A stretch of 64,000 nucleotides of DNA from an uncultured bacterium. GTDB lineage: Bacteria > Patescibacteriota > Saccharimonadia > UBA4664 > SCTI01. The notes below the pieces were generated by a model. It was given only the letters and a program-made list of their open reading frames with translations, was not told where the DNA came from and made no database searches. Within the stretch, counting starts at the first letter, position 1, and each line of letters begins with the position of its first letter. Positions 879 through 57,842 of this stretch are shown one piece after another. The DNA lies in contig CAVRJJ010000005.1 of the NCBI GenBank assembly GCA_963721685.1, positions 167,943-231,942 on the forward strand. The letters are read 5' to 3'. A program made the position numbers and the translations under genes.

Positions 879-1517
879 ATGAACTTGCTTTACCAGCTGC
901 GCGTTCCCATGGCTTTTGCGTTAATTGCGGCGTTATTCTTCTTCCTGACTATTCAGGCTGGCCCGTCGTCACCCAAGGGCACCATAACAGCCGAGGTTGC
1001 CCCCGAAGGAGCCACCATAAGCATCGACGGCCGCGAAATGAGCAGTGAAGTCACGGTGGAAACCGGCGATCATACCGTTGAAGCTAAAATGGATGGATTC
1101 GCCACCCAGTCACAACAAGTTGATCTCAAAGAGGGCCAAACCCTAAAGGTTGGTTTCGTGCTAGAGTCCAACAGCCCCGAAACCGCCGACTGGTATACCG
1201 AGCACCCCGAAGACCAGCAATTAGCCGAGGTCATCCTTGGGCAACTGTCAGACTTTAACACCGAATCCGCGATCCAGACCAATCCTTTGCTACAGCAACT
1301 TCCTTACTCTTACTCTGACGGGAATAGCGGTTTTGTAAACATTGATCATGGCGTGCCGGTCAAAGGATCCAGCCAACCCGCCATCTACGTTTCAGCTCGA
1401 ACCCCTTTGGCCCGCCAGGAGGCGGTTGCCTGGATAAGAAGCCAGGGCTACGACCCCACCACAATGGACATCATATTTAAGGGCGAAGTAAACCCGTTTA
1501 GGGGCCAGACAAAATGA
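879..1517 (+). CDS. PEGA-domain secreted or membrane-anchored protein
   Basis: N-terminal hydrophobic signal/anchor, then TITAEVAPEGATISIDGREMSSEVTVETGDHTVEAKMDGFATQSQQVDL, which fits the PEGA domain pattern. Tightly spaced after the upstream gene. Confidence 0.55.
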   Translation: MNLLYQLRVPMAFALIAALFFFLTIQAGPSSPKGTITAEVAPEGATISIDGREMSSEVTVETGDHTVEAKMDGFATQSQQVDLKEGQTLKVGFVLESNSPETADWYTEHPEDQQLAEVILGQLSDFNTESAIQTNPLLQQLPYSYSDGNSGFVNIDHGVPVKGSSQPAIYVSARTPLARQEAVAWIRSQGYDPTTMDIIFKGEVNPFRGQTK

Positions 1518-3611: not shown

Positions 3612-4721
3612 TTATGTTCGCAACGGCATAATAATGTGTACGTAATCATCGGTGTCGTCTTCGTGGAGCGGGCGCAAGGCACAAGGGTTAAGCTTGCCAC
3701 TCATGGCAAAGGAAATTTGCTTGGTCTTAATGGCCGCCAGGGCGTCGCTTAAATAGCGGGCATTAAGTGAGATCTCGCCATCATCGCCCGCAACCTCGCA
3801 TTCGGCGCTAGAAGTATTTTCTCCCACCTGGGAGGCTGAAGACATTATACGGATTTCGCCTTCAGCTTGAACTTCAACCCGAATGCTTCCGGCGTTTTCC
3901 CGCGCAAACAAGCTGGCCATTTTGGTGAGCCGCGCCAGCTCGGCGGTATCAAGGGTGGCAACTGTTTTTTCCTCTTGGGGAATAATTTGGCGGTAGTTGG
4001 GAAATTGCCCCTCAATGAGCCGGGATACAATCTCAATATTATCCAGCTGGAACATAACTTGGTTGTCGGCCAGGAAAACCCGCACTTCGCCGTCATTATC
4101 TGCTAAAATGCGCGCCAACTCCTGCATAGTACGCGCCGGAACGATAGCCTCGAGCTCAGCTGCTTTGGAGGATGCCAGGGGAATGTGGCGTTCTGCCAAC
4201 CGGTAGCTGTCGGTAGCGACTAAAATTAGGTTGCCTTCCTCGATGTACATGTACACACCGGCTAAAACCGGCCGGTTTTCATCAGGAGATGCCGCCACAA
4301 CAACTTCAGCGATGGCCTCTCTAAATTCGGCTGCCGGCAATACCACGGACGGGTCGGCCTTAACCTCTGGAATTAAAGGGAATTCATCAGCAGAAATACC
4401 GTTTATGTGAGATTCGTAGTGCGGGGTTGTGATGGTAAGGTTGGTTTCACTGGCACTTATTTCCAGCTTGCCGCTTGGTAGGTTGGAAACAAACTCGCTT
4501 AATAGGCGGGCCGGAGAGGTAACCGCACCTTCCTGGGTAACCTTACAACCAATCCAACAGGTAACTCCTATTTCTAGGTTGGTCGCTGAAAGACGCAGCC
4601 GATTGGTGTCGGTGCTTAATAGTATATTACTTAAAACCGGAAGACTGCTACGACTACTCACCACTCGTCCAACAGTTCCCAAGGCTTTATGAAAGTTTTC
4701 CTGGGTAACGCTGAGTTTCAT
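3612..4721 (-). CDS. dnaN: DNA polymerase III beta subunit (sliding clamp) DnaN
   Basis: MKLSVTQENFHKALGTVGRVV... has the three-domain clamp length (about 369 aa). The ATG at 4721 is preferred; the maximal ORF starts with GTG at 4730. Confidence 0.93.
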   Translation of the reverse strand: MKLSVTQENFHKALGTVGRVVSSRSSLPVLSNILLSTDTNRLRLSATNLEIGVTCWIGCKVTQEGAVTSPARLLSEFVSNLPSGKLEISASETNLTITTPHYESHINGISADEFPLIPEVKADPSVVLPAAEFREAIAEVVVAASPDENRPVLAGVYMYIEEGNLILVATDSYRLAERHIPLASSKAAELEAIVPARTMQELARILADNDGEVRVFLADNQVMFQLDNIEIVSRLIEGQFPNYRQIIPQEEKTVATLDTAELARLTKMASLFARENAGSIRVEVQAEGEIRIMSSASQVGENTSSAECEVAGDDGEISLNARYLSDALAAIKTKQISFAMSGKLNPCALRPLHEDDTDDYVHIIMPLRT

Positions 4722-4985: not shown

Positions 4986-6407
4986 TTATCGGCCGATTTG
5001 TTCCTTAATTTGGTTGATTTCGCTACGCAGCTTAGAGTCTACTTCAATTAATTTTTCAATTTTAGTGACGGAATGCATTGCGGTAGTGTGGTCGCGGCCG
5101 CCAACTGTCGAAGCGATTTTGGGGAAACTCAACTCTAGCTCTTCACGCATAAGGTACATGCTGATTTGCCGCGGGACTACGATGTCGCGGTCGCGCTTGG
5201 TGCCGGTAATATCGGTGGGCAGCAGATCAAAAAAAGCAGCGGTCTTTTCAATAATTAAGCGCGGAGTGACGTGTCTTTGGCGGCGCGACCCAGAGCTAGG
5301 CCCATTAAGTTCTTGGGCAACATTTACGCTTGGCGCGATGCCGCGCACCTCGCAGTAAGCCATGAGTTGAGTCAACGCTCCCTCTAGCTCGCGAATATTG
5401 TGCTGGAACTTGTGGGCTAGAAATTCAACGATTTCAAACGACAAGCTTGTTCCTTGTGCCAGGGCTTTGCGCTGGATGATGGCGGCGCGGGTTTCTAGGT
5501 CGGGGCGCTGAACATCGGCGGCCATTCCCATTTCGAAACGGCTACGAAGACGGTCCTCAAGGTGGGGAATTGCCTTCGGCGGCTTATCGCTGGACATTAT
5601 TATCTGCTTATTTGACTGATGAAGGGTGTTAAAGGTGTGGAAGAATTCTTCCTGAGTTTTTTCTTTGTTTCCTAAAAACTGGATATCATCAACTATGAGG
5701 ACGTCGAGGTTTCGGTAGAGGTCGGCGAAACTCCGGGTTTTTTTGGTTTGAATGCTGTGTAGAAACTCGTTGGTAAACTGTTCGCTCGTGACATAGCGGA
5801 CACGCTTAGATGGGTCGCCGCGCAAAATCTCATTGCCCACCGCCTGCATGAGGTGGGTTTTGCCCAGGCCGACGCCGCCGTAAATAAAAAGCGGGCTATA
5901 TTTTTCGCCGGGATACTTGGCGACAGCTTGGCAGGCGGCATAGGCTAGTTCGTTGCTGGAGCCAACAACGTAATTGTCAAAAGTATAGCGCGGGTTTAAA
6001 AGTGGGGTTGAGGCGGCCCGGCGATCGGGCTCAGCGCTCCGAAACTCCGCGCCGGTTTTAGCGGTGGCGTGTGTGCCAAGGGCTACAACAGGACGAGCGA
6101 AGCTCCCGCTGGCACCGGTGCCAGGACTAATAAACGAGTCCCTGGTGGGCTCGGCCGCAGCCCGAGTAACCACCCGGTACTCAATTGACGTTACGGTGGG
6201 GTCCATACGGGCCACCGTTTTAAAAATTTCATCAAAGCATTTTTCTTCCAGCCAGCGTTTTGTATAAATATTAGGAACGCTCACTATAACGTGGCCATCC
6301 TCGCGCCCAATAATTGAGGTATTGCGCAGCCAGGTGTTGAAGTTGCCGGTGCTCATGGTTAGTTCCAGCTCACCCAATAATCCCTGCCATAGCTTGCGCG
6401 AATCCAT
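4986..6407 (-). CDS. dnaA: Chromosomal replication initiator protein DnaA
   Basis: AAA+ Walker A GGVGLGKTHL, sensor motifs and the C-terminal DNA-binding domain. The N-terminus MDSRKLWQ... aligns with the canonical DnaA start. The maximal ORF extends to a GTG at 6464 that overlaps a DnaA box. Confidence 0.93.
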   Translation of the reverse strand: MDSRKLWQGLLGELELTMSTGNFNTWLRNTSIIGREDGHVIVSVPNIYTKRWLEEKCFDEIFKTVARMDPTVTSIEYRVVTRAAAEPTRDSFISPGTGASGSFARPVVALGTHATAKTGAEFRSAEPDRRAASTPLLNPRYTFDNYVVGSSNELAYAACQAVAKYPGEKYSPLFIYGGVGLGKTHLMQAVGNEILRGDPSKRVRYVTSEQFTNEFLHSIQTKKTRSFADLYRNLDVLIVDDIQFLGNKEKTQEEFFHTFNTLHQSNKQIIMSSDKPPKAIPHLEDRLRSRFEMGMAADVQRPDLETRAAIIQRKALAQGTSLSFEIVEFLAHKFQHNIRELEGALTQLMAYCEVRGIAPSVNVAQELNGPSSGSRRQRHVTPRLIIEKTAAFFDLLPTDITGTKRDRDIVVPRQISMYLMREELELSFPKIASTVGGRDHTTAMHSVTKIEKLIEVDSKLRSEINQIKEQIGR

Positions 6408-6654
6408 AGACCTCAACTTTGTTTTAATAGCCATATAATCATAACCAGAATTAAGATTGTCCACAACCGCTTTTGCACGCCAAACTTATCCACAGGCGGA
6501 AACGTCTAAGATCTAGGTTGGTGTAAAACTTCCTACTTTTTGGGGAAAAGAAAATGAAGAAAAAATTTTGTTCAAGCCCACCGCCAAATTCATGGCAGCT
6601 AGTGAGCTATGCGGGAAATTGACGCTGGCGCAGGATTGACGTATGATATAGCCC
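6408..6654. promoter_or_regulatory. dnaA upstream region: DnaA boxes, AT-rich stretch and the divergent rpmH promoter (putative oriC / dnaA autoregulation)
   Basis: Perfect TTATCCACA at 6486-6494 and TTGTCCACA at 6457-6465. AT-rich run at 6541-6575. TTGACG(6619-6624)-N17-TATGAT(6642-6647) promoter for rpmH. Confidence 0.55.
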
Positions 6655-6792
6655 ATGCCGAAACGAACGTACCAGCCAAAGAAAAAGCGACGAATGCGCG
6701 TACACGGGTTCCTCCAAAGGATGAGCACGCGCGCTGGTCGGCTGGTGCTAAAGCGCCGCCGCCTTAAAGGGCGAAAGCAGCTAAGCGTTTAA
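6655..6792 (+). CDS. rpmH: 50S ribosomal protein L34
   Basis: [45 protein letters not shown] (45 aa) is unmistakably L34. It is missed by the ORF track (below the length cutoff) and lies behind the near-consensus promoter. Confidence 0.9.
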
Positions 6793-6801
6793 CGCGAATT
6801 C

Positions 6802-7149
6802 ATGCTAGCCAGCCGCAACCGTCTTAAGCAACCGCGGGCAATTGCCCGGGTGTTTAGACAGGGGCGGCAGGGCTCAAGCGGAAACATAAGGCTGAAGGCC
6901 TCCATCAACGGCACCCAAGAAAGCCGGGTGGTGGTAGTGGTTAGCAAAAAAGTTTCTAAGCGGGCAGTGGTGCGCAATCGTATCCGCCGCCGGGTTGGCG
7001 CTCTTGTGGCCGAACGCTGGGCGACAGTACCATCTGGATACGATATAGTTATAGTAGTTCACGGCGACATCGCCGAAGCTCCGGCCGCTGAACTAGCTAA
7101 GCAACTTGCCGAAGCAGTCGAACGAACCAAAATGATAACGGTGTCTTAA
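6802..7149 (+). CDS. rnpA: Ribonuclease P protein component
   Basis: 115 aa basic protein directly after rpmH, with the RnpA-type N-terminus LKQPRAIARVFRQG. Confidence 0.85.
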   Translation: MLASRNRLKQPRAIARVFRQGRQGSSGNIRLKASINGTQESRVVVVVSKKVSKRAVVRNRIRRRVGALVAERWATVPSGYDIVIVVHGDIAEAPAAELAKQLAEAVERTKMITVS

Positions 7150-7152
7150 TCT

Positions 7153-8032
7153 ATGTTTACCACGATCTTTGTCGAACCATTATTCAATGTCTTGTTTGTG
7201 TTATACGCGCTGGTACCGGGACATGACTTTGGTGTGGCGGTTATCCTGCTGACTATTTTGGTGCGTATGGCGTTATGGCCGCTGGTAACAAAGCAACTAC
7301 ATTCCCAGCGCGTGTTGCAAAAACTTCAGCCCGAAGTGGCGAAGGTGCGCGCGGCGGCCGGGGGCGATCGTCAAAAAGAAAGTAAAATGTTGATGGAGCT
7401 CTATAAAGAAAAAGGCACCAACCCCTTCGCCTCCATCTTGCCGTTGCTGGTACAGCTCCCAATCTTTTTCGCCCTCTATATTGTTTTGCGGGACGCCGTT
7501 AGACCAGATGAAATTGCTAAGCTGAGCTATGGGTTCGTCCAGCACCTGGGCCCAGTGGCGGACATTATTAGCGAAAAGGTTAGTTTTCATCCTTCACTTT
7601 TTGGGCTTAATCGACCTAACTAAGCCGCACTTGGGCGTAGCCATATTGGCAGGGCTTGCCCAGTTTTACCAGGCCCGGCAGTTGCTGCCGCAAACAATGG
7701 CGGCAGGCGGCGACCAGGCCAAGCTAATGAGGAACATGACCTATATCTTCCCGTTTTTAACTGCCGGCATTGGCATGACCCTTCCGTCCGCACTAGCTCT
7801 ATATTGGTTGTTTACCAGCCTGGTAGCTGCCTTCCAGCAGTATTGGGTTTTGCTGCGCGATGCTGAAGAGCTTGAGGCCATCGAGGATAAAATTCATCCG
7901 CCGGCCGCTTCTAAAAAAACTTCTCCAAGCAAACCAACCCTAAGTAAAGCGCAACGTAAGGCCGTCGCCCGCAAGGCCAACCCGAAAAGTAAGGGGAAGG
8001 TTTCTAAGGCGCCCGGGAGTAAGGCGGAATGA
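7153..8032 (+). CDS. yidC: Membrane protein insertase YidC (short Gram-positive type, Lys-rich tail) with an apparent +1 frameshift near 7584-7587
   Basis: The N-terminal half (7153..7623, frame 1) and C-terminal half (7529..8032, frame 2) both match YidC/Oxa1. Removing one T from the TTTT run at 7584-7587 gives a continuous ...ISEKVSFILHFLGLIDLTKP. Confidence 0.8.
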
Positions 8033-9624: not shown

Positions 9625-11148
9625 CTATCGCCGCTTGTATAAGGTGAGAATGGTTTTGTCGGGAAGGGTGGAGCGCATGACGACTGCGCCGGAGCCGGCA
9701 CCTCCCGACGTTCGCTCAAGCACATAATTTGCCTCGGCGGGGGTAGCGATGGGGACACCGAACCGCCGATGGAAGTAAGCCATTCCCCAACCGTTGAGCC
9801 ACATAGTGTCGGATCCCGAGTAGGCCAAGCTGCGGGCAGCGGGCGGTTGCCGCTCGAGGTAAGCAAATATTTCCTGGAGACCCCAGTCTTCATTGGTTGG
9901 CGGTCCAATGATGTAGCCTCGCTGTGCAAAGACAGTAACCGGTTTTCCAGCTAAGGAGGCCTCTATATTGGCGGGAAGAACCTTCCAGCCAAAGCTAATA
10001 ACCCAAAACATGGCCGCGCCGTACAAAGCGATGCCGGTGTAGACGAGGCGCCGCGGCGTGGTTTTCAGCATGCCTATCCAAATAACAGAAAAAAGGGAAA
10101 CCGCGGGCAACATAGGAAGCGTATAGCGCGCATCTTTGTTGGCTAGTAGCGCAAAGGCCGTGTAGGTTCCTAGTATCAAGAGGGCGGGATACATTAGCTC
10201 AGGACGAAGCCTTCTCTGCCAAGCCAGCGCGCCAATACCCACCAAGAACAATAAGGCTCCTGGCAGGAAAACCTGTTGGTTAACCAGGTTTGGCACATAC
10301 CAAACGGCGGCCGCCAGGCTACCCGGCAGGGGATCACCTTCCCGCAGCGCCTGCTCGGCGCCGTTAACCTTGGTGTCAATTTGCAATTGCTGGATATTGG
10401 CCGCGTACCAGGGGCTGGCCACCGTGTAGGCCAGCAATACGGCCGCCCCGGCTACCACCAAGCGGCGCGGGCGCCTTTCCCTAAAATCGGCTTTGGCCGC
10501 CAGAACAACCGCCCAAATTACGGGAAGAAGCATGCACGCCACGAACGTCCATTTTGTAAGCATCCCCAGGCCACAAACAACACCGAAGGCTATGGAATAG
10601 GCGGGTTTTCGAAACGCCTCGGAGTACAACAGCAAGCAAAGGGCTAGGGCCACCATCGCGGTAAGTGGGGCATCGAGCTGGAGCTCCTTAAACTGGGTAA
10701 TAAGCATGGGGTAACTGAGGCAGAGGATCGCGGCAATTAGCCCGGCCGCCCGGCTTGCAATGCGGACGCCCAGAAAGTAAACGGAAAAGAGGAGGATGAG
10801 AATAAAAATTGTATTCGACATTACCGCCGCCTCAACATTCACGCCAAACAAAATGTAAAAAGGAATGACCGCCCAATACAACAAGGGGGGATAGTAGGCG
10901 TAATGCTGCAACAACGGCAGCAGCTGATGATTTTGAAAAAGCTCCCAGTAGTGCAAGCTTGTCCAAAGGTGGCGCCCCATGTCCCAGTGTGGCGGCCGCG
11001 TTTCGGTGGTGATCCATAGGTAATTGGCACTTATTATGAGAGCGGCCAAAAAAACCAGAATAAGGGGGCAGGTATAGCGGCTCAACCACAAGGCCCTTAC
11101 CCGGTTTCTCGGCGGCACCGCCTTACCCGCGATGGGAATTCTTGTCAT
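9625..11148 (-). CDS. GT-C fold glycosyltransferase, PMT/ArnT (GT39/GT83-like) family, polytopic membrane protein
   Basis: More than 10 predicted transmembrane helices and a C-terminal soluble domain. The N-terminal loop has the acidic motif typical of the dolichyl/undecaprenyl-phosphate-sugar transferase architecture. Start placed at the internal ATG (MTRIPIAG) to limit overlap; the maximal ORF reaches 11199. Confidence 0.65.
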   Translation of the reverse strand: MTRIPIAGKAVPPRNRVRALWLSRYTCPLILVFLAALIISANYLWITTETRPPHWDMGRHLWTSLHYWELFQNHQLLPLLQHYAYYPPLLYWAVIPFYILFGVNVEAAVMSNTIFILILLFSVYFLGVRIASRAAGLIAAILCLSYPMLITQFKELQLDAPLTAMVALALCLLLYSEAFRKPAYSIAFGVVCGLGMLTKWTFVACMLLPVIWAVVLAAKADFRERRPRRLVVAGAAVLLAYTVASPWYAANIQQLQIDTKVNGAEQALREGDPLPGSLAAAVWYVPNLVNQQVFLPGALLFLVGIGALAWQRRLRPELMYPALLILGTYTAFALLANKDARYTLPMLPAVSLFSVIWIGMLKTTPRRLVYTGIALYGAAMFWVISFGWKVLPANIEASLAGKPVTVFAQRGYIIGPPTNEDWGLQEIFAYLERQPPAARSLAYSGSDTMWLNGWGMAYFHRRFGVPIATPAEANYVLERTSGGAGSGAVVMRSTLPDKTILTLYKRR

Positions 11149-12460
11149 GCGTCGCCCCTTTTCTAGCCTGAGTCCCGGTAAGGCCAAGCACCAATCCAAT
11201 TGTCACCCAAATATGAGGGATGTAGAGCGTGGAAAAGGCGTAATACTGCACAACGTATGCCAAACAGGTTGCAAAGAGCGCCGCCAGCCAAACGCGATGG
11301 TAGTTCATAAGCTGCATACGCCACGTGCCCACGAGGCGCGCAAAAAGCGCCACTACAAAGCCTGCCAGCGCCAAAGCTCCCGCTAAACCGGTTTCAGCCA
11401 ATATTTCATAGTACTCATTGTTGACGGTGGGGTGGTTTCCCTTAGCCGGATAATTAAGCGGCGCTGCGGATTTGGCATATGCTCCGAAGCTGCCAATACC
11501 ATAGCCGAGCAGGGGGCGGTCTTGAAAAGCCTCAATCGCTAAGCGGCGATTAAGCACCCGGTCGCTATCAGCACTTCCTTTATTGGATGTTACGGTGGTG
11601 GACTGCTTCACATAACGCTTAATCGCCTTATCACCGGCATTGGGGTCAGCGTTAAAGGCGTTAGTCGCGGAGTATATTAAGCCGGCCGCGCACAAGGCCG
11701 CCAGACCAATAGTCGTGACAACGCCCGTCATTACCCTCAACGATGAGAGCCTGACAAGCAGTCCCATAAGTGCCATTAACCCAACCGCGCCCCCAATCAT
11801 CCCTCCCCGGGATAGGGTGAGCGCAAGGGCCAATATAAACAGGAAAAGCAGAATATAAGTAATGGTGGATTTTTGCTGGTTGCGCCCGAGTAAAAGGCCG
11901 GTCGCCAGCATAACCGGAAGGAGCAAATAATTGGCAAAGAATAGCGGCTCAAGACCGGTAGACTGAATCCGCGGAAAGCCAAAGATCTCTTTGATATAAT
12001 TGGGCCGCAAGCCGGTAGCCGACGGGGGCAATCCGATAATGTCGCCAATAAATTGGTACAGCCCGAAAGCAACCGCGACCGCGGTAGCAGCGAACAGCAC
12101 TTTTTGTATTCTCGGTAACGCTTCCAAGCGAACAACGCGGGCAACGATCACCGCCGCTCCTATGGCCAGAGCGGTTGCTACAATCACGATAAGCGAGCGG
12201 GGTTTGTCTATTGACCCAAGCAAGGAAGCAGCCAGCACGGCCATGTACGCCGCCAACCAGAAGTAGGGGCTGAAGGGATTAAGGCGGACCCGCCGGGCAA
12301 TCATAGGGCCGAAGACGATGATCCCGACGGCAATTATAATAAGACTTAGACGAAGGGTGACGGTATGTGATCCAAGCGAAACATCAAGAGAAGGAATGCG
12401 CTCAAACGGCAGGACCGCTACAAGCGCCACCAACCACCATCGTTTCAAGAAATTCATCAT
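11123..12460 (-). CDS. O-antigen ligase/polymerase (Wzy_C) family membrane protein
   Basis: Polytopic membrane protein with LTLSRGGMIGGAVGL (Wzy_C signature region) and a large periplasmic loop. Confidence 0.65.
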   Translation of the reverse strand: MMNFLKRWWLVALVAVLPFERIPSLDVSLGSHTVTLRLSLIIIAVGIIVFGPMIARRVRLNPFSPYFWLAAYMAVLAASLLGSIDKPRSLIVIVATALAIGAAVIVARVVRLEALPRIQKVLFAATAVAVAFGLYQFIGDIIGLPPSATGLRPNYIKEIFGFPRIQSTGLEPLFFANYLLLPVMLATGLLLGRNQQKSTITYILLFLFILALALTLSRGGMIGGAVGLMALMGLLVRLSSLRVMTGVVTTIGLAALCAAGLIYSATNAFNADPNAGDKAIKRYVKQSTTVTSNKGSADSDRVLNRRLAIEAFQDRPLLGYGIGSFGAYAKSAAPLNYPAKGNHPTVNNEYYEILAETGLAGALALAGFVVALFARLVGTWRMQLMNYHRVWLAALFATCLAYVVQYYAFSTLYIPHIWVTIGLVLGLTGTQARKGATHDKNSHRG

Positions 12461-33915: not shown

Positions 33916-33996
33916 CCTCAAATTTAATTGACATTTCGCTTTTTGTTCGCCATACTAAAACCAAACACTATTATTCATAATTATGAGGGAGGTTGC

Positions 33997-34617
33997 ATGG
34001 CGGAACCGCTGACAAAACGGCAAAAGGAGGTACTGGACTACGTAACCCAGTACATCGAAGTTAATGGGTACGCGCCAAGTTACCGCGAGATTGCCGAGGC
34101 GTTTCACCTTGGTTCAGTTGCCACCGTGGCCGACCATGTTGAAACTCTGGTTGCTAAAGGCTTACTGAAAAAAGGTGATAACTCTGCCCGTTCCCTGCAA
34201 TTGGTAAAAGAAGAAGATTTCAACAGCGACCATTTCGTTGGGCTGCCTATCCTTGGTATGATTGCCGCCGGCCAGCCCATCCAAACCATGACCGGCCACG
34301 CCGAAACCTTGGAGGTGCCCCAATTTATGGTAGGCACGAAGAATTCTTACGTGCTGCAAGTGAAGGGCGACTCGATGATTGAAGAAGGCATTTTTGAGGG
34401 GGATTACGTGGTCATCCAAGAGAAGGAAGTCCCTTCCAACGGGGATATGGTTGTGGCGCTTGTTAATAACGAAGAAGCGACCTTAAAGCGCTACTATAAG
34501 GAAAAGGGCCATACCCGGTTGCAGCCGTCAAACGACGCTTATGACCCTATCATTGTGCCAGCTTCCACCCCCTTAAAAATCCAAGGAGTATGCATTGGGG
34601 TCATCCGCAAATACTAA
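33997..34617 (+). CDS. lexA: LexA repressor
   Basis: N-terminal wHTH (LTKRQKEVLDYV), S24 peptidase Ser (KGDSM) and Lys (ATLKR). Strong RBS GAGGGAGG at 33985-33992. The track start at 33928 is an upstream in-frame ATG without an RBS. Confidence 0.9.
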   Translation: MAEPLTKRQKEVLDYVTQYIEVNGYAPSYREIAEAFHLGSVATVADHVETLVAKGLLKKGDNSARSLQLVKEEDFNSDHFVGLPILGMIAAGQPIQTMTGHAETLEVPQFMVGTKNSYVLQVKGDSMIEEGIFEGDYVVIQEKEVPSNGDMVVALVNNEEATLKRYYKEKGHTRLQPSNDAYDPIIVPASTPLKIQGVCIGVIRKY

Positions 34618-34722
34618 TAATAAACGCTACCTCCGCCGTCTTTTCCGCAAATACCTTTTTTCTTACACCTTCGAGCCGCTAACGCCGCCTAAAAAGGACT
34701 CAGCGAAGTCAAAAAACCAGAG

Positions 34723-34752
34723 TTGACCAGATAGAGCCGGGAATCGTATACT
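34723..34752 (+). promoter_or_regulatory. Putative sigma70-type promoter of tRNA-Asn
   Basis: TTGACC (34723-34728) - 18 nt - TATACT (34747-34752), 18 nt upstream of the tRNA 5' end. Confidence 0.4.
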
Positions 34753-34770
34753 GTCGAAGTACTTACGCGA

Positions 34771-34845
34771 TCCGGCGTAGCTCAGTGGTAGAGCAGTTGA
34801 CTGTTAATCAATTGGTCGCAGGTTCGAATCCTGCCGCCGGAGCCA
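34771..34845 (+). tRNA. tRNA-Asn (anticodon GUU), CCA encoded
   Basis: Manual fold: acceptor TCCGGCG/CGCCGGA, D arm GCTC-AGTGGTA-GAGC, anticodon arm GTTGA-CTGTTAA-TCAAT (GTT), T arm GCAGG-TTCGAAT-CCTGC, discriminator G, CCA. Confidence 0.9.
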
Positions 34846-34932
34846 AAGGCGAGAAGATAACTTCTGTTATCGCCTCGCCTTTTGTTTTGGCAGGCAGGCT
34901 CCAAACCTAGGTTCGGTGGATGAGGAAATAGA
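34839..34932 (+). repeat. Direct repeat copy 1 (tRNA 3' end GGAGCCA + terminator hairpin + ~50 bp), bracketing the GAF cassette
   Basis: About 80% identical to 35569..35663. Both begin with GGAGCCAAAGGCGAGAAGATAAC and share ...AAACCTRGGTTCGGTGGATGAGGAAAT. Confidence 0.7.
34848..34888 (+). terminator. Rho-independent terminator after tRNA-Asn
   Basis: GGCGAG-AA-GATAAC TTCT GTTATC-GC-CTCGCC followed by TTTTGTTTT. Confidence 0.6.
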
Positions 34933-35050
34933 ATACAACGACTAAGCCAGACGTACACGTGGTATACTTCGATTAATATATACTTCAAGTATCACGTCCT
35001 ATTATTAACAAGGGGAGCATGCCATTAAAACAAGCATTCTAGATGATGAG

Positions 35051-35476
35051 TTGAAGCAAATCCGAGAGTTAGACAAAATCACCAGCGATGCGTCAGAATT
35101 CTTTAATGTCCCTTACGCGATGATAAATCTCGTAACATCGGATAGAGTTATATTCAAGTCTTGTACTGGTCTGGTTGTGGGCGATTCATTGGATCGTAAT
35201 GGTTCATTTTGCTCAGCGGCTTCGCAAAAAGATAGTCCGCTGGTCATAAAAGATGCGACTCAGGACTCTTACTTTAAAACTAATCCGCTGGTCGTTGGAA
35301 GCTTAAAAATACGATCATATGCTGGAAAATCATTACATGCACCTGACGGCACACGGATGGGCACTCTCTGCCTCCTCGATACAGTACCAAGAGATTACAC
35401 GAAGGAGCAGCTTCGTTCTTTGACGGACCGGGCAAAGCTGGCGAGCATAACGCTACATGCGATTTTAACTACCTAG
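35051..35476 (+). CDS. Stand-alone GAF-domain protein
   Basis: 141 aa with a GAF-like pattern of conserved Gly/Cys/Asp. TTG start with a weak RBS; the start is uncertain. Confidence 0.5.
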   Translation: MKQIRELDKITSDASEFFNVPYAMINLVTSDRVIFKSCTGLVVGDSLDRNGSFCSAASQKDSPLVIKDATQDSYFKTNPLVVGSLKIRSYAGKSLHAPDGTRMGTLCLLDTVPRDYTKEQLRSLTDRAKLASITLHAILTT

Positions 35477-35568
35477 CCAATTGCGCCTGGTGCCGCGGTG
35501 CGCAACATCCCCAACAATTTCTTTTGTGGTCATGGCAGGTTAAGCAGTTTGAAAATCGTCCCAGATGG

Positions 35569-35663
35569 GGAGCCAAAGGCGAGAAGATAACATCGGTTAT
35601 CGCCTCGCCCTTTGTTTTAGATGGAGGGATGCGAAACCTGGGTTCGGTGGATGAGGAAATGGA
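35569..35663 (+). repeat. Direct repeat copy 2, including a second terminator hairpin with covarying loop (ATCG instead of TTCT)
   Basis: GGAGCCAAAGGCGAGAAGATAACATCGGTTATCGCCTCGCCCTTTGTTTT... The stem is preserved and the loop changed. Confidence 0.7.
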
Positions 35664-35717
35664 TGAGAATGCACGCCAGTATATTCTTTCCAATGACGAA
35701 GGAGGTGGCGAAGCCAC

Positions 35718-35747
35718 AATCCTGCCGCCAGAGCCATTGCACTTATG
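35718..35747 (+). repeat. att-like junction 1: 19-nt copy of the tRNA-Asn 3' half (AATCCTGCCGCCaGAGCCA, 1 mismatch) fused to TTGCACTTATG
   Basis: Compared by eye to 34827-34845 of the tRNA. Confidence 0.65.
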
Positions 35748-35825
35748 CCTGTTCCATCATTCTGTTATTGTTAACGAATGCGGAGACATCCATAAATAGC
35801 ATCGCTTATTCTCGCAGTAATATTA

Positions 35826-36239
35826 GTGCCCTCTCTTTTTTTCGGCTTTCAAGCAGTCAAAGAGGAAAGTACTAAGAGTAATATAAAATCGGAGCTAGCT
35901 TCATTTAAAACCCCCAATGGTTGCACAGAAGTCGACAGAGCTTACCAAGCAGGAGGAATTGATGTTAAGTCCTTATGGTACGTTTACTATGAGTGCAGTG
36001 CCACGGTAGGGGTCATTCATTCTGACTTAATGAGTGCTTTGAAGAAAAATGGCTATATTGTCAGTGATGACCCTTTTGACAAAGAAGAGCATTTTGACCG
36101 GCACCTCAGCATTCCATTTTATAAATCACAAGAGTATTTGGCTTCCTGCGCCTTTGATTTTTCAGAATGGGAAGAAAGTGGTAAAACTTTTGAAAATCGT
36201 AATGTCAAAAAGATCACTCTTTCTCTAAGAAAAATATAA
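35826..36239 (+). CDS. Hypothetical protein (cassette gene)
   Basis: 137-aa ORF downstream of junction 1. No recognizable domain; start uncertain. Confidence 0.4.
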   Translation: MPSLFFGFQAVKEESTKSNIKSELASFKTPNGCTEVDRAYQAGGIDVKSLWYVYYECSATVGVIHSDLMSALKKNGYIVSDDPFDKEEHFDRHLSIPFYKSQEYLASCAFDFSEWEESGKTFENRNVKKITLSLRKI

Positions 36240-36357
36240 GCATTTAGAGTAGATTTCTTCCAGACCCTGTTTTACGCACCGAAGGTAGCGGTTAGTCGCT
36301 TAGCTTCCTCTAAATCACAATCAAACTCTGTTTCTTTGTTCTGGAACAAGACCGCTA

Positions 36358-36378
36358 GGGGGAGCCATTGCACTTATG
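36358..36378 (+). repeat. att-like junction 2 (GGGGGAGCCATTGCACTTATG)
   Basis: Motif copy preceded by CGCTAGGG, as at junction 6. Confidence 0.55.
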
Positions 36379-36383
36379 TTTGC

Positions 36384-38156
36384 TCAATTCAAGTTAAAAG
36401 AAAAATTGTCAGGATTTATATCATAGTCTGGAGCAAGTTTTTTAAATTCGGCTAAGAAAATACGATGAGCTTGGACTTTTAGTTGCGGAGGTACTTTTTG
36501 GCCTTCTGCTAAGCCAAGTCTCTGTAAGGTTCTACTTCCTGCCTCTTCAAGGGCTTTAGTGCGATGGCTGGTTAGCGATTCGGGTGCGTCCGTGGTCGGT
36601 TCACTTCCTAAGGCAATCCCTTCAGCTATTTGCGTAGGGATTTTAGGTGACGGCCTACCGACAAAAGCTTCTTGTAAATCTTCGGGCAAAGCCTTTACTA
36701 GTTCAAGAATTTTATCGGCCTCCGCGTCGCTCGCGTATAAAACGATGCCGTCAGCCCGCAATGATATCTTCTCGCCGCGTGCTGCTCGTTGTGTATCCTG
36801 GCATAGTTCCATAGCCCGATCCAGCATTTTGCCGTGGACTGTCAGACCTGATTCATTAGCTGCCTTCATAAGCGCTGAAAAAACCTTTACAGAATCCTCG
36901 GGTCTCGGGTTCAGGTAAATCCGCTTGGTCATTTCAGTATTTTGATTTCGCCCTTCCGCTTTAGCCTTAGCGTAGGAGTCACTTGACCAGTGAATAAATT
37001 GTCCTGAAACTTCTTCCTGAAAGCGTATATTAGGCCTTACCCCACGAACTTTGCCATCTGTGCTTAATATATTAATTGGTCTTGGTTCGCCGGGTATAGG
37101 AATAGGTAAGCCCTCAAACTGTATATCCTGTCCGCGAGCATGTGCACCAGCGGCAACTTTACTAAAGAATTCCCTTCCATCTGGATCGCCATCTCTTAGT
37201 TCTTGTTGATATCTAGTCCTGGCATCAACCAATAATTTCCTTTCGCCGCGACCGAGTTCGCCTGAAACCGCAATTTTTAAATTATCGGCGATCATTGCTC
37301 TGATTTGGCTATGAATATCAGCGAGCGTACCAGGCTTTTGGGCCGCTTCATAGTCATCCTGGGTCGCAGGCACTTTATCTAAAAATACCTTTAAGACGGT
37401 TGCTTCGCCTTCTGGATTTGTAAGCACTTCATTCAATAGATTCATAACGAAATCCTCGGAAAAGCCGCGCGATATTTTTTCAGCCTCTTCAAATGATGAG
37501 GCTCTAAATGGCAACTTTTCTTTTGATTTCGCTTCTTTTTCTTCTAAATCGACTAAGTCTTTGTATTCACCTAGCCTATAGTCATCATATCCCGGTGCTT
37601 TCAAGCGAATCATTTGCATCATAACTTTTTTTGCTATATTCACCTTTGCTAACTCTTCTTTGCGCCATTCTTTATCCTCACGGTTGGGACTGATACGGAC
37701 TGCATGTTCGCCATTGCTCCAAGCGTATCCAACATCAACGGCGTTCGCGCTTCCGCTTGCAATGATTTTTTGAGCGATGGCATCAATATCTGCGACATCA
37801 AGCTGGGTGGGGTAGATAGTACTTTCGGTATCTACGGGCTCTTCGGGTCTTTGATCTTCCGGGACACGCCTTCTAGTTTCCCTGACAACATTTAATAAGT
37901 TCTGGCTAGATCTATCGAATTCATCCGAATTAGTAATACTTTGAGCGACAGAATCTATAAGATTACCTCTGATGGTTTGAAGCTGTTCATCTGAGAATCG
38001 TTCGTAAGGATTTGGCGCTGTTTCGCTTTCTACTTTCGGCTGGCCAGCTTCGGGTTTTCCCTGTATAGCCTCAAGCTCTTCGGCCAAAGCTTCCCCTGAA
38101 AAGGTTTTAGTCTCAGATTGTGCTTCTGGTGTTGTAGTGCCCTCAGGATTACTCAT
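36384..38156 (-). CDS. Large acidic hypothetical protein (590 aa), no recognizable domain
   Basis: Long uninterrupted ORF with an E/D-rich N-terminus, possibly phage- or plasmid-derived. No catalytic motif identified by eye. Confidence 0.55.
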   Translation of the reverse strand: MSNPEGTTTPEAQSETKTFSGEALAEELEAIQGKPEAGQPKVESETAPNPYERFSDEQLQTIRGNLIDSVAQSITNSDEFDRSSQNLLNVVRETRRRVPEDQRPEEPVDTESTIYPTQLDVADIDAIAQKIIASGSANAVDVGYAWSNGEHAVRISPNREDKEWRKEELAKVNIAKKVMMQMIRLKAPGYDDYRLGEYKDLVDLEEKEAKSKEKLPFRASSFEEAEKISRGFSEDFVMNLLNEVLTNPEGEATVLKVFLDKVPATQDDYEAAQKPGTLADIHSQIRAMIADNLKIAVSGELGRGERKLLVDARTRYQQELRDGDPDGREFFSKVAAGAHARGQDIQFEGLPIPIPGEPRPINILSTDGKVRGVRPNIRFQEEVSGQFIHWSSDSYAKAKAEGRNQNTEMTKRIYLNPRPEDSVKVFSALMKAANESGLTVHGKMLDRAMELCQDTQRAARGEKISLRADGIVLYASDAEADKILELVKALPEDLQEAFVGRPSPKIPTQIAEGIALGSEPTTDAPESLTSHRTKALEEAGSRTLQRLGLAEGQKVPPQLKVQAHRIFLAEFKKLAPDYDINPDNFSFNLN

Positions 38157-55214: not shown

Positions 55215-55988
55215 ATGAGCGCGACGAAACCAAAACCAACCCATGCTATAGCCATCCAGGGTTTACAGAAACGCTATAAGAGCGGGGTGGAAGCGTTAAA
55301 GGGCATTGACTTAACAATTCCTGATGGCGGTTTTATTGGACTGCTTGGACCAAACGGGGCGGGGAAGTCCACGCTTATCCATTGCATTATGGGATTGGCT
55401 ATCCCTACCAGCGGCAAGGCTAGTGTGTTTGGCCACGACGTAGTGACTGACTATCAAGCAGCGCGCCGGCTATGCGGCCTGGCACCCCAGGAAATTAATA
55501 TGGACTGGTTCTTAACCGTTGAGGACACCTTGGATTTTCATGGCGGTTACTATGGGATGACAAAGGCCGAACGTAGGCCGAGGATCGATGAGCTCCTCGA
55601 AACCTTTTCTCTTACCGACAAGCGAAAAGCCAAAATGTTAGCCCTTTCCGGCGGCATGAAGCGCCGCGTAATGCTCGCCCGGGCGGTAATGCACAACCCC
55701 AAAGTCTTAATTTTAGATGAACCCACCGCTGGGGTTGATGTTGAGCTTCGGCTGGAGCTTTGGCAGTACATGAAAAAAATTAACAAGGCCGGGACTACCA
55801 TCCTATTAACTACCCATTACATTGAAGAGGCGGAAGGTTTATGCGACCAGATTGCCCTCATTAATAAAGGCGAAATTATCAAGGAAGGCACATCGGACGA
55901 GCTGAAGAAACAGTTTGGTAAGAAAACATTGGAAGATGTTTATTTAACCGTGATTGGGCGTGAAGAGCTAACCCGGATGACTAAATGA
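55215..55988 (+). CDS. ABC transporter ATP-binding protein (ABC-2 exporter type)
   Basis: Walker A GPNGAGKST, signature LSGGMKRR, Walker B ILILDEPT. Start at MSATKPKP (the track starts upstream at 55074). Confidence 0.85.
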   Translation: MSATKPKPTHAIAIQGLQKRYKSGVEALKGIDLTIPDGGFIGLLGPNGAGKSTLIHCIMGLAIPTSGKASVFGHDVVTDYQAARRLCGLAPQEINMDWFLTVEDTLDFHGGYYGMTKAERRPRIDELLETFSLTDKRKAKMLALSGGMKRRVMLARAVMHNPKVLILDEPTAGVDVELRLELWQYMKKINKAGTTILLTTHYIEEAEGLCDQIALINKGEIIKEGTSDELKKQFGKKTLEDVYLTVIGREELTRMTK

Positions 55989-56761
55989 ACAGCTATTTGC
56001 GAAGATACCTGCCGTTTGCCACGGTTTTACGGCGCGAGTGCCAACGGTTTTGGTCGATTCGCCGCCAAACCATTTTAGGGCCACTGTTGGAAACATACCT
56101 TTACATTAGTGTGTTTGGAGCCGCACTTGGCAGTCGGATTAACGAGCTCGAAGGCCATTCGTATATCGCCTTCATTATCCCTGGACTTTTGCTGATGGCG
56201 GTGGCGATTAACGCTTTTTCTAATAACTCGTCCTCACTGTTGCAACAAAAACTGCAGCGGGCGATTGACGACCAGCTGGCCTCACCGGTTTCGAACCGGG
56301 CGCTATTAAGCGCCTTTACGTTAGGCGGTTTTATCCGGGGGATACTGATCGCGACCATTACCTTTATAACAGCCTCGTTTTTGGTGGATTTGCCGGTGGC
56401 GCACCCTTTGTTGTTAATAAGTAGCTTAGTGATCTGCGGCCTTTTTTTTGCTTCACTCGGTGTGCTGGTTGGCTTGCGCGGAGAAACCTTTGATAACATC
56501 AGCTTCTATCAGACCTTTGTTTTGCAGCCGCTCATTTTCCTGGGGGGTATTTTTTACTCAGTAAAGTTACTTCCGGAGCCGTTTAAAACCCTTACCCATT
56601 TCGACCCGATGCTGTATATGATTAACACCGTGCGTTATGGCATGCTGGGTAGCGCTGATGTTAACCCTTACCTCTCCCTGCTTGTCATTTCGATTGCCAC
56701 AGCCGCCCTGATTGGCCTGAATATGCACCTGTTTAAGAAGGGTTACCGACTGCGTAGCTAA
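55985..56761 (+). CDS. ABC-2 family transporter permease
   Basis: Six-transmembrane permease translationally coupled (ATGA overlap) to the ATPase. Confidence 0.8.
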   Translation: MNSYLRRYLPFATVLRRECQRFWSIRRQTILGPLLETYLYISVFGAALGSRINELEGHSYIAFIIPGLLLMAVAINAFSNNSSSLLQQKLQRAIDDQLASPVSNRALLSAFTLGGFIRGILIATITFITASFLVDLPVAHPLLLISSLVICGLFFASLGVLVGLRGETFDNISFYQTFVLQPLIFLGGIFYSVKLLPEPFKTLTHFDPMLYMINTVRYGMLGSADVNPYLSLLVISIATAALIGLNMHLFKKGYRLRS

Positions 56762-56881
56762 AAAAGCATTACCATAAACTGGTTGACAGAGTAAAGCAAT
56801 TATTTGATTATTAAGCAGCAGATGTAGGTGCCTTACTGTCTAACAAGGAGGTTTACCGCATTTGAGCTAGGTTCCCAACAT

Positions 56882-57075
56882 AAAGGAGGTTGCACATCGC
56901 AATCTCACTCGTAGAGCGCGACGTTGATCGCGGCTACGTCCACACGTCACGCGAAGCGCTTCGCACCAACGCTGGAGTCATTGTCGGCTTCACCAGCGTT
57001 GTCGCTAAGCGCGACGATACGTGCTGCGACGTCCGCATCACCGTTCCCCGCTCTGTCGAGCGCAAGCTCGACTAA
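56882..57075 (+). other. Perfect SD (AAAGGAGGT) followed by a GC-rich 61-codon ORF with TTG (spacing 0) or ATC (spacing 6) start; candidate small protein or structured RNA
   Basis: See findings. Composition deviates from neighbours. Internal direct repeat, a GNRA hairpin at the ORF end and a 14-nt palindrome. Confidence 0.25.
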
Positions 57076-57200
57076 GACAACAATGGTCGAGGGCCTTAAC
57101 GGGGGTTCACCCTCAGACCATCCGCGGGTCCAGTCAAATAGAGAAATATCATGGTCCGCGAGGATCATCGGTTACTCTCTGGGTTCCATGTCTCGCTGAA

Positions 57201-57226
57201 GCGTCCCGCTTCGGCGGGGCGTTTTA
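57201..57226 (+). terminator. Rho-independent terminator with UUCG tetraloop
   Basis: GCGTCCCGC TTCG GCGGGGCG TTTT. It sits between the convergent ABC operon/small-ORF region and the NUDIX gene. Confidence 0.7.
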
Positions 57227-57230
57227 GTAT

Positions 57231-57842
57231 CTAATTGCTGGAGGCCGAATATTCCGGCAGCGCCAGCAACTCATCGATGGTCCCAACGCTAGATAATATC
57301 TCCTTAGGCAGATAGCGCGTAGTAGGTTTGCCAAGCATATTCTTAACTTCGTCTAGAGACTTTAAATGAACGGTAATTTTTTCTCCCCCGTCAGGTTTTG
57401 GCTCGGTTTGAGAATCAAATTCATGCGCCAGAAAAAGGTAGGCCAGGTGGTCCGTCTTGCTCTGCGGCTGGATTGCCCGCAGTAAGTGCCAGTTTTTGAA
57501 AGACAAGCCGGTTTCTTCTCGCAGTTCGCGTTGGATGGCCTGGAGCTCGGTTTCTTCTTCATGGTCATGCCGCCCGCCGGGTATATCAAAAAACTTACCG
57601 TGAAAAGGCTGTTCCTCCTCTAAGATAACTATCTTATCGTCTTTTACGGCAATAACTTTCACCGTGTCAGGACGCTTAATCATCTCAAAGGTCGCGTGGG
57701 AGCCATCAAACAATTTCTGCTGCCATTGGTATACATCGTAAATCTCTCCCTTAAACACTCGTTCGGCTTGCGGGGGGAGCAGTTTTGCTTCGGGCGGAAT
57801 TACTTCGCGCATTGCTACTGCGATCGAGCTTTCCGCACCCAA
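57231..57842 (-). CDS. NUDIX hydrolase
   Basis: Nudix box GGRHDHEEETELQAIQRELREETGL. Confidence 0.85.
   Translation of the reverse strand: MGAESSIAVAMREVIPPEAKLLPPQAERVFKGEIYDVYQWQQKLFDGSHATFEMIKRPDTVKVIAVKDDKIVILEEEQPFHGKFFDIPGGRHDHEEETELQAIQRELREETGLSFKNWHLLRAIQPQSKTDHLAYLFLAHEFDSQTEPKPDGGEKITVHLKSLDEVKNMLGKPTTRYLPKEILSSVGTIDELLALPEYSASSN

Follow-up and report, generated by a model that had tools for sequence, protein, structure and literature searches.

Dual-function (coding) small RNAs are exemplified by RNAIII/hld of Staphylococcus and SR1/SR1P of Bacillus; to our knowledge, an open reading frame (ORF) that forms one hairpin of about 53 bp is not a feature of either. Two further known arrangements resemble parts of the locus described here. 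The 5′ stabiliser of Bacillus thuringiensis cryIIIA combines a terminal stem-loop with a Shine-Dalgarno-like sequence, the 'STAB-SD', and infC-like genes use near-cognate AUU or AUC start codons together with strong Shine-Dalgarno sequences (SDs). As for the Saccharibacteria and other CPR bacteria, which have tiny genomes, we know of essentially no small RNAs or small proteins that have been described, and a search of the literature on Saccharibacteria sRNAs and on type I toxin-antitoxin systems in Patescibacteria returned nothing relevant.

In the window (the whole stretch of DNA analysed, 64 kb), a gap of about 470 bp at 56762-57230 lies between an ABC-2 permease gene on the left and a convergent NUDIX gene on the right. 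Relatives of the permease assign the window to Saccharimonadia (Saccharibacteria/TM7, CPR). The gap is occupied by a self-contained, lineage-restricted unit which goes beyond chance, was previously unannotated and is unexplained by any curated family. We give a probability of roughly 55% to the reading that it is a true gene for a small protein, carried by a heavily structured mRNA of about 410 nt and equipped with a promoter and a terminator of its own. In the public annotation of the source genome the small ORF is left uncalled; called instead is a 73 amino acid antisense ORF (P0125), which is a singleton, is not conserved in the homologous contig L034 presented below, and is spurious. The features of the window copy are collected in Table 1.

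Table 1. Position of the features of the unit and of its two flanking genes, numbered from the first letter of the window.
Feature	Position	Strand	Basis or remark
ABC-2 transporter permease gene	55985..56761	+	stop TAA 56759-56761; Pfam ABC2_membrane, E 1.8e-30
Putative sigma-70-type promoter, TTGACA-17 nt-GATTAT	56783..56811	+	10/12 consensus positions matched
5′-terminal leader hairpin, 18 consensus pairs (predicted)	56819..56864	+	RNAalifold helix 1
SD1, SD-like AAGGAGGT	56845-56852	+	sequence
Two-codon mini-ORF, TTG AGC TAG	56862..56870	+	9 nt 3′ of SD1; within 15-nt invariant block ACCGCATTTGAGCTA
SD2, AAAGGAGGT, putative ribosome-binding site of the small ORF	56882..56890	+	12-nt block AAAGGAGGTTGC identical in window and L034
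SD2 hairpin, part of SD2 paired (GAGGUUGC with GCAAUCUC) (predicted)	56886..56906	+	MFE folds of both copies
Small ORF, 61 codons from TTG 56890 or 59 from ATC 56896	56890/56896..57075	+	stop TAA 57073-57075; product ...AISLVERDVDRGYVHTSREALRTNAGVIVGFTSVVAKRDDTCCDVRITVPRSVERKLD
30-nt direct repeat, 73% identity	56915-56944 and 57008-57037		inside ORF; sequence
14-nt palindrome GCGAAGCGCTTCGC	56951-56964		inside ORF; sequence
Long imperfect hairpin of the two ORF halves, about 53 pairs	56913..57054	+	predicted folds
GNRA hairpin, GTCGAGC-GCAA-GCTCGAC	57055..57072	+	directly 5′ of stop TAA
First 3′UTR hairpin (AUGGUCGAGGG / CCCUCAGACCAU)	57083..57121	+	consensus helix 13
Second 3′UTR hairpin	57140..57180	+	MFE; consensus helices 14 and 15
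Intrinsic terminator: GC-rich stem, UUCG loop, T run	57188..57228	+	consensus helix 16
NUDIX hydrolase gene, convergent, 193 aa	57231..57812	-	stop 57231-57233; Pfam NUDIX, E 9e-14

The -35 box of the promoter follows the permease stop after only 21 nt, and transcription would start at about 56817-56819. In the leader hairpin the first SD-like sequence (SD1) is predicted to be paired with GCCUU; the second (SD2) is partly paired in a hairpin of its own, whose loop holds the candidate start codon. Several of the landmarks had been picked out by eye in a preliminary description of the sequence. The full SD complement reported there at 56881-56889 is real and lies one base further to the right. 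The 61-codon frame had been read from a TTG at zero spacing or an ATC at 6 nt, and both codons are in the sequence: TTG 56890, whose spacing to GGAGG is zero, is the only canonical in-frame start, and ATC 56896 is found 6 nt past GGAGG. The frame would encode a product that includes DVDRGYVHTSR, TNAGVIVGFTSVVAK and a peptide ending in ITVPR. It is GC3-rich, as had been stated, with a value of 0.73 as compared with 0.49-0.59 across seven neighbouring genes, and its GC content is 0.60 against 0.50 for the window. The GNRA stem is where it was said to be, at the end of the ORF, and the terminator, which had been placed about 120 nt downstream, starts 113 nt past the ORF stop and ends 2 nt short of the NUDIX stop codon. 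The reported internal duplication and 14-nt palindrome are also present; however, neither of them, nor the UUCG loop of the terminator, is conserved in L034, and all three are probably incidental.

Using the 61 amino acid frame as query in an exhaustive phmmer search against 1.84 billion protein representatives, we obtained one real match, a protein of 60 amino acids (P0121) that is 55% identical (E 2.8e-9) and likewise ends in ERKLD*. Three other matches were rejected as repeat-protein artefacts. A profile search recovered P0121 and no further family member, while a search with five open frames joined as one query, which returned no match, not even P0121, was uninformative. P0121 is encoded on an 852-bp contig (JAOQFB010148207.1, assembly GCA_025491075.1; referred to as L034), in which the promoter, the leader, the SD block AAAGGAGGTTGC, the frame and its stop, the GNRA hairpin and the terminator are all homologous to those of the window. 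The promoter, TTGACA-17-AATAAT, occupies the homologous place and matches 11 of the 12 consensus positions. At the position of the window ATC, L034 carries a GTG, likewise 6 nt past GGAGG, and the sole indel between the two ORFs is one of 3 nt, inside the loop of the SD2 hairpin. In L034 the mini-ORF reads TTG AGC TAA and shares the frame of the main ORF; in the window it is out of frame. The GNRA hairpin, GGCGAGC-GTAA-GCTCGAC, has five invariant consensus pairs and a loop that is still GNRA. No other long plus-strand ORF crosses the region in L034. An opposite-strand NUDIX gene has its stop codon directly past the L034 terminator, and both known copies of the unit thus adjoin the stop codon of a convergent NUDIX gene. 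The left neighbour is not the permease, as the upstream frames are without its conserved ...GY(K/R)LR(S/A)* end.

The family has two known members, and all the conservation statistics given here come from one pairwise comparison, window against L034. The nucleotide identity is highest in the leader (81%), followed by the terminator (77%), the promoter (69%), the ORF (63%) and the 3′UTR (45%). The last value is about that of gapped unrelated DNA and indicates saturation, therefore the other segments are held by selection and not by recent common descent. As judged from the alignment of the two copies, the promoter, leader, SD, frame, stop, hairpins and terminator are all conserved.

The small-ORF frame is the only one of six that is free of stops in both copies; the other five carry one to four stops each. 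We re-dealt the 63 observed ORF substitutions at random as a null model, under which 24.7±2.6 identical residues were expected against the 32 of 60 observed (P = 0.004), and the BLOSUM62 score of 147 compared with 88±18 (P<0.001). In frames +1, +2, -0 and -2 the amino acid conservation was at the null, and frame -1, the mirror of the ORF across the hairpin, showed a marginal excess (P about 0.05). By this measure, protein-level constraint is clear only in the small-ORF frame. The classical position bias is weak, with 22, 16 and 25 substitutions at codon positions 1, 2 and 3, and pN/pS is 0.61 in the ORF frame as compared with 0.64-1.6 in the wrong frames, some of which lie at 0.64-0.75. The hairpin pairing joins codon positions 1-3, 2-2 and 3-1, which would flatten the spectrum, because a silent change at position 3 in one arm forces a change at position 1 in the other.

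The peptide has 19 charged residues in each of the two copies, and its maximal Kyte-Doolittle mean over 19 residues is 0.78 in the window and 0.68 in P0121; we propose a soluble, beta-rich product with no transmembrane segment. No relative of the small protein was found in Pfam, NCBIfam, PHROGs, PADLOC or PDB, and the AlphaFold2 model built from the alignment of the two sequences is a three-stranded sheet of low confidence, its pLDDT of 55 being insufficient for a search by fold. In the window copy no canonical start stands at a workable spacing, ATC being a weak near-cognate codon; according to the alignment translation could begin at this ATC, or the copy could instead be a start-codon-deficient allele. 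The earlier suggestion of a small protein with a non-AUG start gains support from the 60 amino acid homologue, which shares the SD, the stop and the ERKLD* ending and has GTG in the place of ATC, and from the frame-specific conservation.

At the RNA level, the plus strand of 56815-57230 folds with a predicted energy of -185.8 kcal/mol, at z = -7.8 relative to dinucleotide shuffles, against z = -3.0 for the minus strand; the L034 RNA has z = -4.4. When compared with 1,224 tiles of 416 nt from both strands of the window, the element was the most stable after correction for GC, with a residual of -42.6 kcal/mol as against -34.5 for the best tile. The consensus fold of the window and L034 comprises 98 pairs, none broken and 10 changed on both sides, whereas slid controls, with the partners shifted by 1-3 columns, gave 0-2 two-sided changes, the consensus structure having been derived from the same two sequences on which compensatory pairs were scored. 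The leader hairpin has 16 invariant pairs, two that vary on one side and none broken, and the SD2 hairpin (helix 4) has six invariant pairs. The first 3′UTR hairpin, in the 45%-identical stretch, has nine pairs, two of them changed on both sides, and the two helices of the second have one compensatory pair each; none of the 14 pairs of the terminator is broken. L034 keeps an ORF hairpin of 55 pairs with the same apex as in the window. After re-dealing of the substitutions, the hairpin of the window (-86.7) was matched in stability by none of 300 sequences (-58.4±4.4) and that of L034 (-78.9) by nine of 300 (-69.2±4.6). In these predictions the mRNA is highly structured, SD1 being buried in the leader hairpin and SD2 partly paired. 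In both copies the terminator and the 5′ arm of the ORF hairpin have complementary sequences, and a translation-sensing antiterminator was considered; it was rejected, as the terminator stayed intact in each copy when the 3′ arm was blocked in folding.

Both the ORF and the structure, compensatory pairs included, are therefore kept in L034. The structured RNA of the preliminary description stands, its fold being conserved with compensatory changes, but it is best seen as the mRNA itself and not as a separate non-coding RNA. The cis-regulatory leader also proposed there is not supported, as the unit has a conserved promoter of its own; moreover, its terminator lies directly against a convergent gene, which leaves no downstream plus-strand gene to regulate.

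The reading as a non-coding RNA nevertheless survives best among the alternatives, and we regard it as possible, on the unlikely side. The unit would then be a structured ncRNA of about 410 nt, a trans- or antisense-acting riboregulator whose frame is a by-product of GC-rich, self-complementary sequence, and the role of the two SD-like motifs would lie in RNA-RNA pairing or in binding the ribosome, not in the translation of a product. A very stable fold conserved with compensatory pairs, an untranslated 5′ leader that is better conserved than the ORF or any other part, a window copy lacking a canonical start codon, the flat codon-position spectrum with its pN/pS of 0.61 and the low confidence of the AlphaFold model all go in this direction, and from stop counts we estimate that a 60-codon frame stays open at 60% GC with a chance of about 0.14 per frame. 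However, an ncRNA leaves unaccounted for the clear excess of amino acid conservation in this frame only (the mirror being marginal), the fact that no other frame is open in both copies, the invariant 12-nt SD block 6 nt ahead of the GTG in L034, and the identical stop codon and last five residues; nor is there an Rfam family to which it would belong.

Under the preferred reading, that of a small-protein gene, the promoter would drive a transcript of about 410 nt ending at the terminator. Its 5′-terminal hairpin, with the buried decoy SD, probably stabilises the RNA, to judge by the analogy with 5′ stabilisers and the STAB-SD, and may gate the access of ribosomes. SD2, predicted to be half-paired in its small hairpin, would hold the start codon in the loop, and translation from ATC in the window, or from GTG in the homologue, would feed the 59-61-codon frame, the two halves of the coding region pairing in the model as a hairpin of about 53 bp. 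Since the ribosome-binding site is half-occluded, the ATC near-cognate and the structure heavy, weak and conditional translation would be expected. The RNA would be long-lived in such a model.

One could go further and see in the unit a CPR-specific class of dual-purpose RNA, in which the in-register hairpin of about 53 bp is at once coding sequence and functional dsRNA element, functionally tied to the abutting NUDIX gene. In that case an RNA-decapping-type NUDIX enzyme could have the RNA as its substrate, sensor or antisense partner, or the unit could be an addiction or defence module that maintains itself at the site. We find this doubtful, and any link of the unit to the NUDIX gene is one that we infer.

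The distribution of the unit is patchy. In L001, the nearest relative, where the permease is 90% and the NUDIX protein 66% identical to those of the window, the stop codons of the two genes overlap (AGCTAAGC) with zero intergenic DNA, and by this comparison the 56762-57230 block is an indel. In all 11 GTDB permease loci (L001-L011) the next gene comes 0-30 nt past the permease stop or overlaps it, and the genes beside the permease vary among the ten loci other than L001. The window NUDIX protein is P0001 (100% identity across 193 amino acids), after which the next NUDIX relative is 65% identical; the element is absent from the NUDIX loci reached via seven further relatives. The NUDIX fragment of L034 is 50% identical to the window protein, against 66% for that of L001. 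On these sequences, two lineages that are fairly distant share the element, which a closer one lacks; it is present in 2 of the 10 NUDIX lineages examined. An nhmmer search over a first set of these loci gave no further copy, and a model of the leader (R1) found none in L001 or the NUDIX loci, including three added later, and, inside the window, neither a second copy nor an obvious partner. By blastn, the phage and plasmid collections yielded only chance matches, 23-34 nt long; in viral contigs, scans with three DNA patterns and one back-translated protein pattern gave chance 18-mers or nothing; and in metagenomes the leader pattern AGGAGGTNNACCGCATTTGAG gave one chance match (L035) and no copy. 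As far as the compared sequences go, the cassette is an accessory one of patchy occurrence, missing both from the closest relative and from every other related locus that was looked at. Its position at a NUDIX stop codon, repeated in both copies, could reflect an old linkage followed by many losses, or a site preference.

Such a distribution, in 2 of 10 lineages and not in the closest relative, would be explained by an addiction or defence module, that is, by a type I toxin-antitoxin-like or other selfish module in which the unit is the toxin mRNA, stable, folded and normally blocked in translation. The predicted architecture is hok-like, in that the RNA measures about 400 nt and is extremely structured, its SD is occluded, a short ORF lies upstream and the start codon is weak, and the composition is unlike that of the host. 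We nonetheless hold a toxin mRNA to be improbable. The peptide, with the maximal means given above, is without a hydrophobic segment, and PADLOC and Pfam gave no toxin match. A consensus scan, which covers canonical promoters, found no minus-strand promoter at homologous positions of both copies, and the 21 nt upstream leave no room for a divergent sRNA gene. The consensus fold does contain a hok-like 5′-3′ closing helix (56866-56871 with 57223-57228), but it is unproven, as it competes with an extension of the terminator stem that uses the same 3′ bases in the MFE fold of the window.

It is very improbable that the block is inert, whether as a piece of foreign GC-rich DNA in decay or as a functionless MITE-like insertion. 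Its absence between the same two genes in L001 and a GC content above that of the host would fit an insertion, and CTAA, which we read in the sequence at both junctions, could be a 4-bp target duplication restoring both stop codons; this motif is ambiguous, because both flanking genes need their stop codons. However, no terminal inverted repeats are visible by eye, the 64-kb window holds a single copy and the phage, plasmid, viral and metagenome scans none, and the promoter, leader, SD, frame and terminator have been conserved even though the NUDIX proteins are only 50% identical and the 3′UTRs saturated.

No consensus block of tmRNA, RNase P RNA or SRP RNA had been recognised by eye in the gap, and Rfam agrees: at gathering thresholds it finds only a tRNA-Asn in the window, and there is no match inside the element in L034. 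When E values up to 10 were admitted, the matches were chance ones driven by the terminator or by hairpins and differed between the window and L034, the best in the gap being istR, terminator-driven, at 25 bits, where the gathering score is 45. A divergent tmRNA, RNase P RNA, SRP RNA or 6S RNA, or a known riboswitch or leader, is thus hardly credible, for although size and GC enrichment fit a structured housekeeping RNA and the presence of rnpA in the window means that the genome must somewhere contain an RNase P RNA, ARAGORN finds no tmRNA and the locus is empty in L001.

With two members, the element remains a lead and not a discovery. The locus is a clean example missed by standard annotation and a candidate natural case of AUC initiation behind a perfect SD. 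Its coding sequence doubles as a long hairpin, in which selection on a protein and on an RNA structure can be studied together. The patchy presence, together with the location of both copies at the end of a NUDIX gene, is a hint that the role may be accessory or regulatory, and such a role could bear on RNA turnover in these epibionts.

When set beside the known systems, the unit is similar to RNAIII/hld and SR1/SR1P in being an independent promoter-to-terminator unit of a few hundred nucleotides, with many conserved hairpins and a short frame inside a structured RNA, but it has no sequence or Rfam relationship to them. With hok-type mRNAs it has in common the length, the unusual stability, the occluded SD and the short upstream frame, along with a presumed repression and a patchy distribution; in contrast to them, its product is not a hydrophobic membrane peptide, and neither an antisense RNA gene nor a promoter for one was found. 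As in the cryIIIA stabiliser, a hairpin begins 1-2 nt from the inferred 5′ end, and a perfect SD-like AAGGAGGT lies near that end, well upstream of the ribosome-binding site and followed by a two-codon frame only, although in the present unit the decoy SD itself forms part of the paired stem of the hairpin. The likeness to infC-like genes is that a codon other than AUG, GUG or UUG stands at the ideal spacing of 6 nt from a 9-nt SD, where the homologue has GTG; the use of ATC in the element differs in being inferred by alignment only. The unit falls within a known kind, being either a small ORF carried by a structured mRNA or a dual-function RNA, and calls for no new category.

Both junctions of the block between the ABC-2 permease and NUDIX genes carry the motif CTAA (window 56759-56762 and 57230-57234). 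At the closest relative's locus (L001), where these two genes adjoin without the element, a single CTAA within 3787-3795 gives both stop codons, TAA on the plus strand and TAG on the minus strand. The pair of CTAA motifs is compatible with a 4-bp target duplication or with each gene simply needing a stop codon.

The 852-bp contig with the sole other known copy of the element (L034, JAOQFB010148207.1) begins with a perfect palindrome of 60+60 nt (1-120), which lies at the end of the contig and is almost certainly an assembly artefact. It masks what truly lies to the left of the homologous element, and the miRNA-like Rfam chance hits in this contig arise from it. Antisense to the element, the source genome is publicly annotated with a 73-aa hypothetical protein (P0125, window 56947-57168, minus strand). 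P0125 forms a singleton cluster and, as L034 does not conserve this reading frame, the gene call is probably spurious.

Since rnpA is present in the replication-origin gene cluster, the genome must also encode an RNase P RNA; Rfam detected none within the 64-kb window. In the region 33928-36384, the stretch of about 1.5 kb beyond the tRNA-Asn gene holds only short ORFs and could be a former integration site. After GC correction, the window's second most stable 416-nt tile (10193-10608, minus strand; MFE -185.4 kcal/mol, residual -34.5) falls within a 524-aa ORF (9625-11199, minus strand), and such folding is unusual for a coding region.

Other features of the window
Feature	Position	Strand	Remark
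Replication-origin gene cluster	4986-7623		
dnaA		-	in origin cluster
rpmH	6655-6792		in origin cluster
rnpA	6802-7149		in origin cluster
yidC			follows rnpA
LexA-like repressor gene	33928-34617		
tRNA-Asn	34771-34845		after LexA-like repressor gene

In a locus from another Saccharimonadia lineage (L044), the NUDIX gene is followed by a 220-nt gap in which, in place of the element, there is a sequence that by eye resembles a tRNA gene (1290-1370, minus strand). On a contig binned as Solirubrobacteraceae (Actinobacteria; L010, DATLOP010000121.1), the ABC-2 ATPase and permease genes are Saccharimonadia-like and share 63-65% identity with those of the window, which could reflect either misbinning or transfer of the genes between the epibiont and a host lineage.
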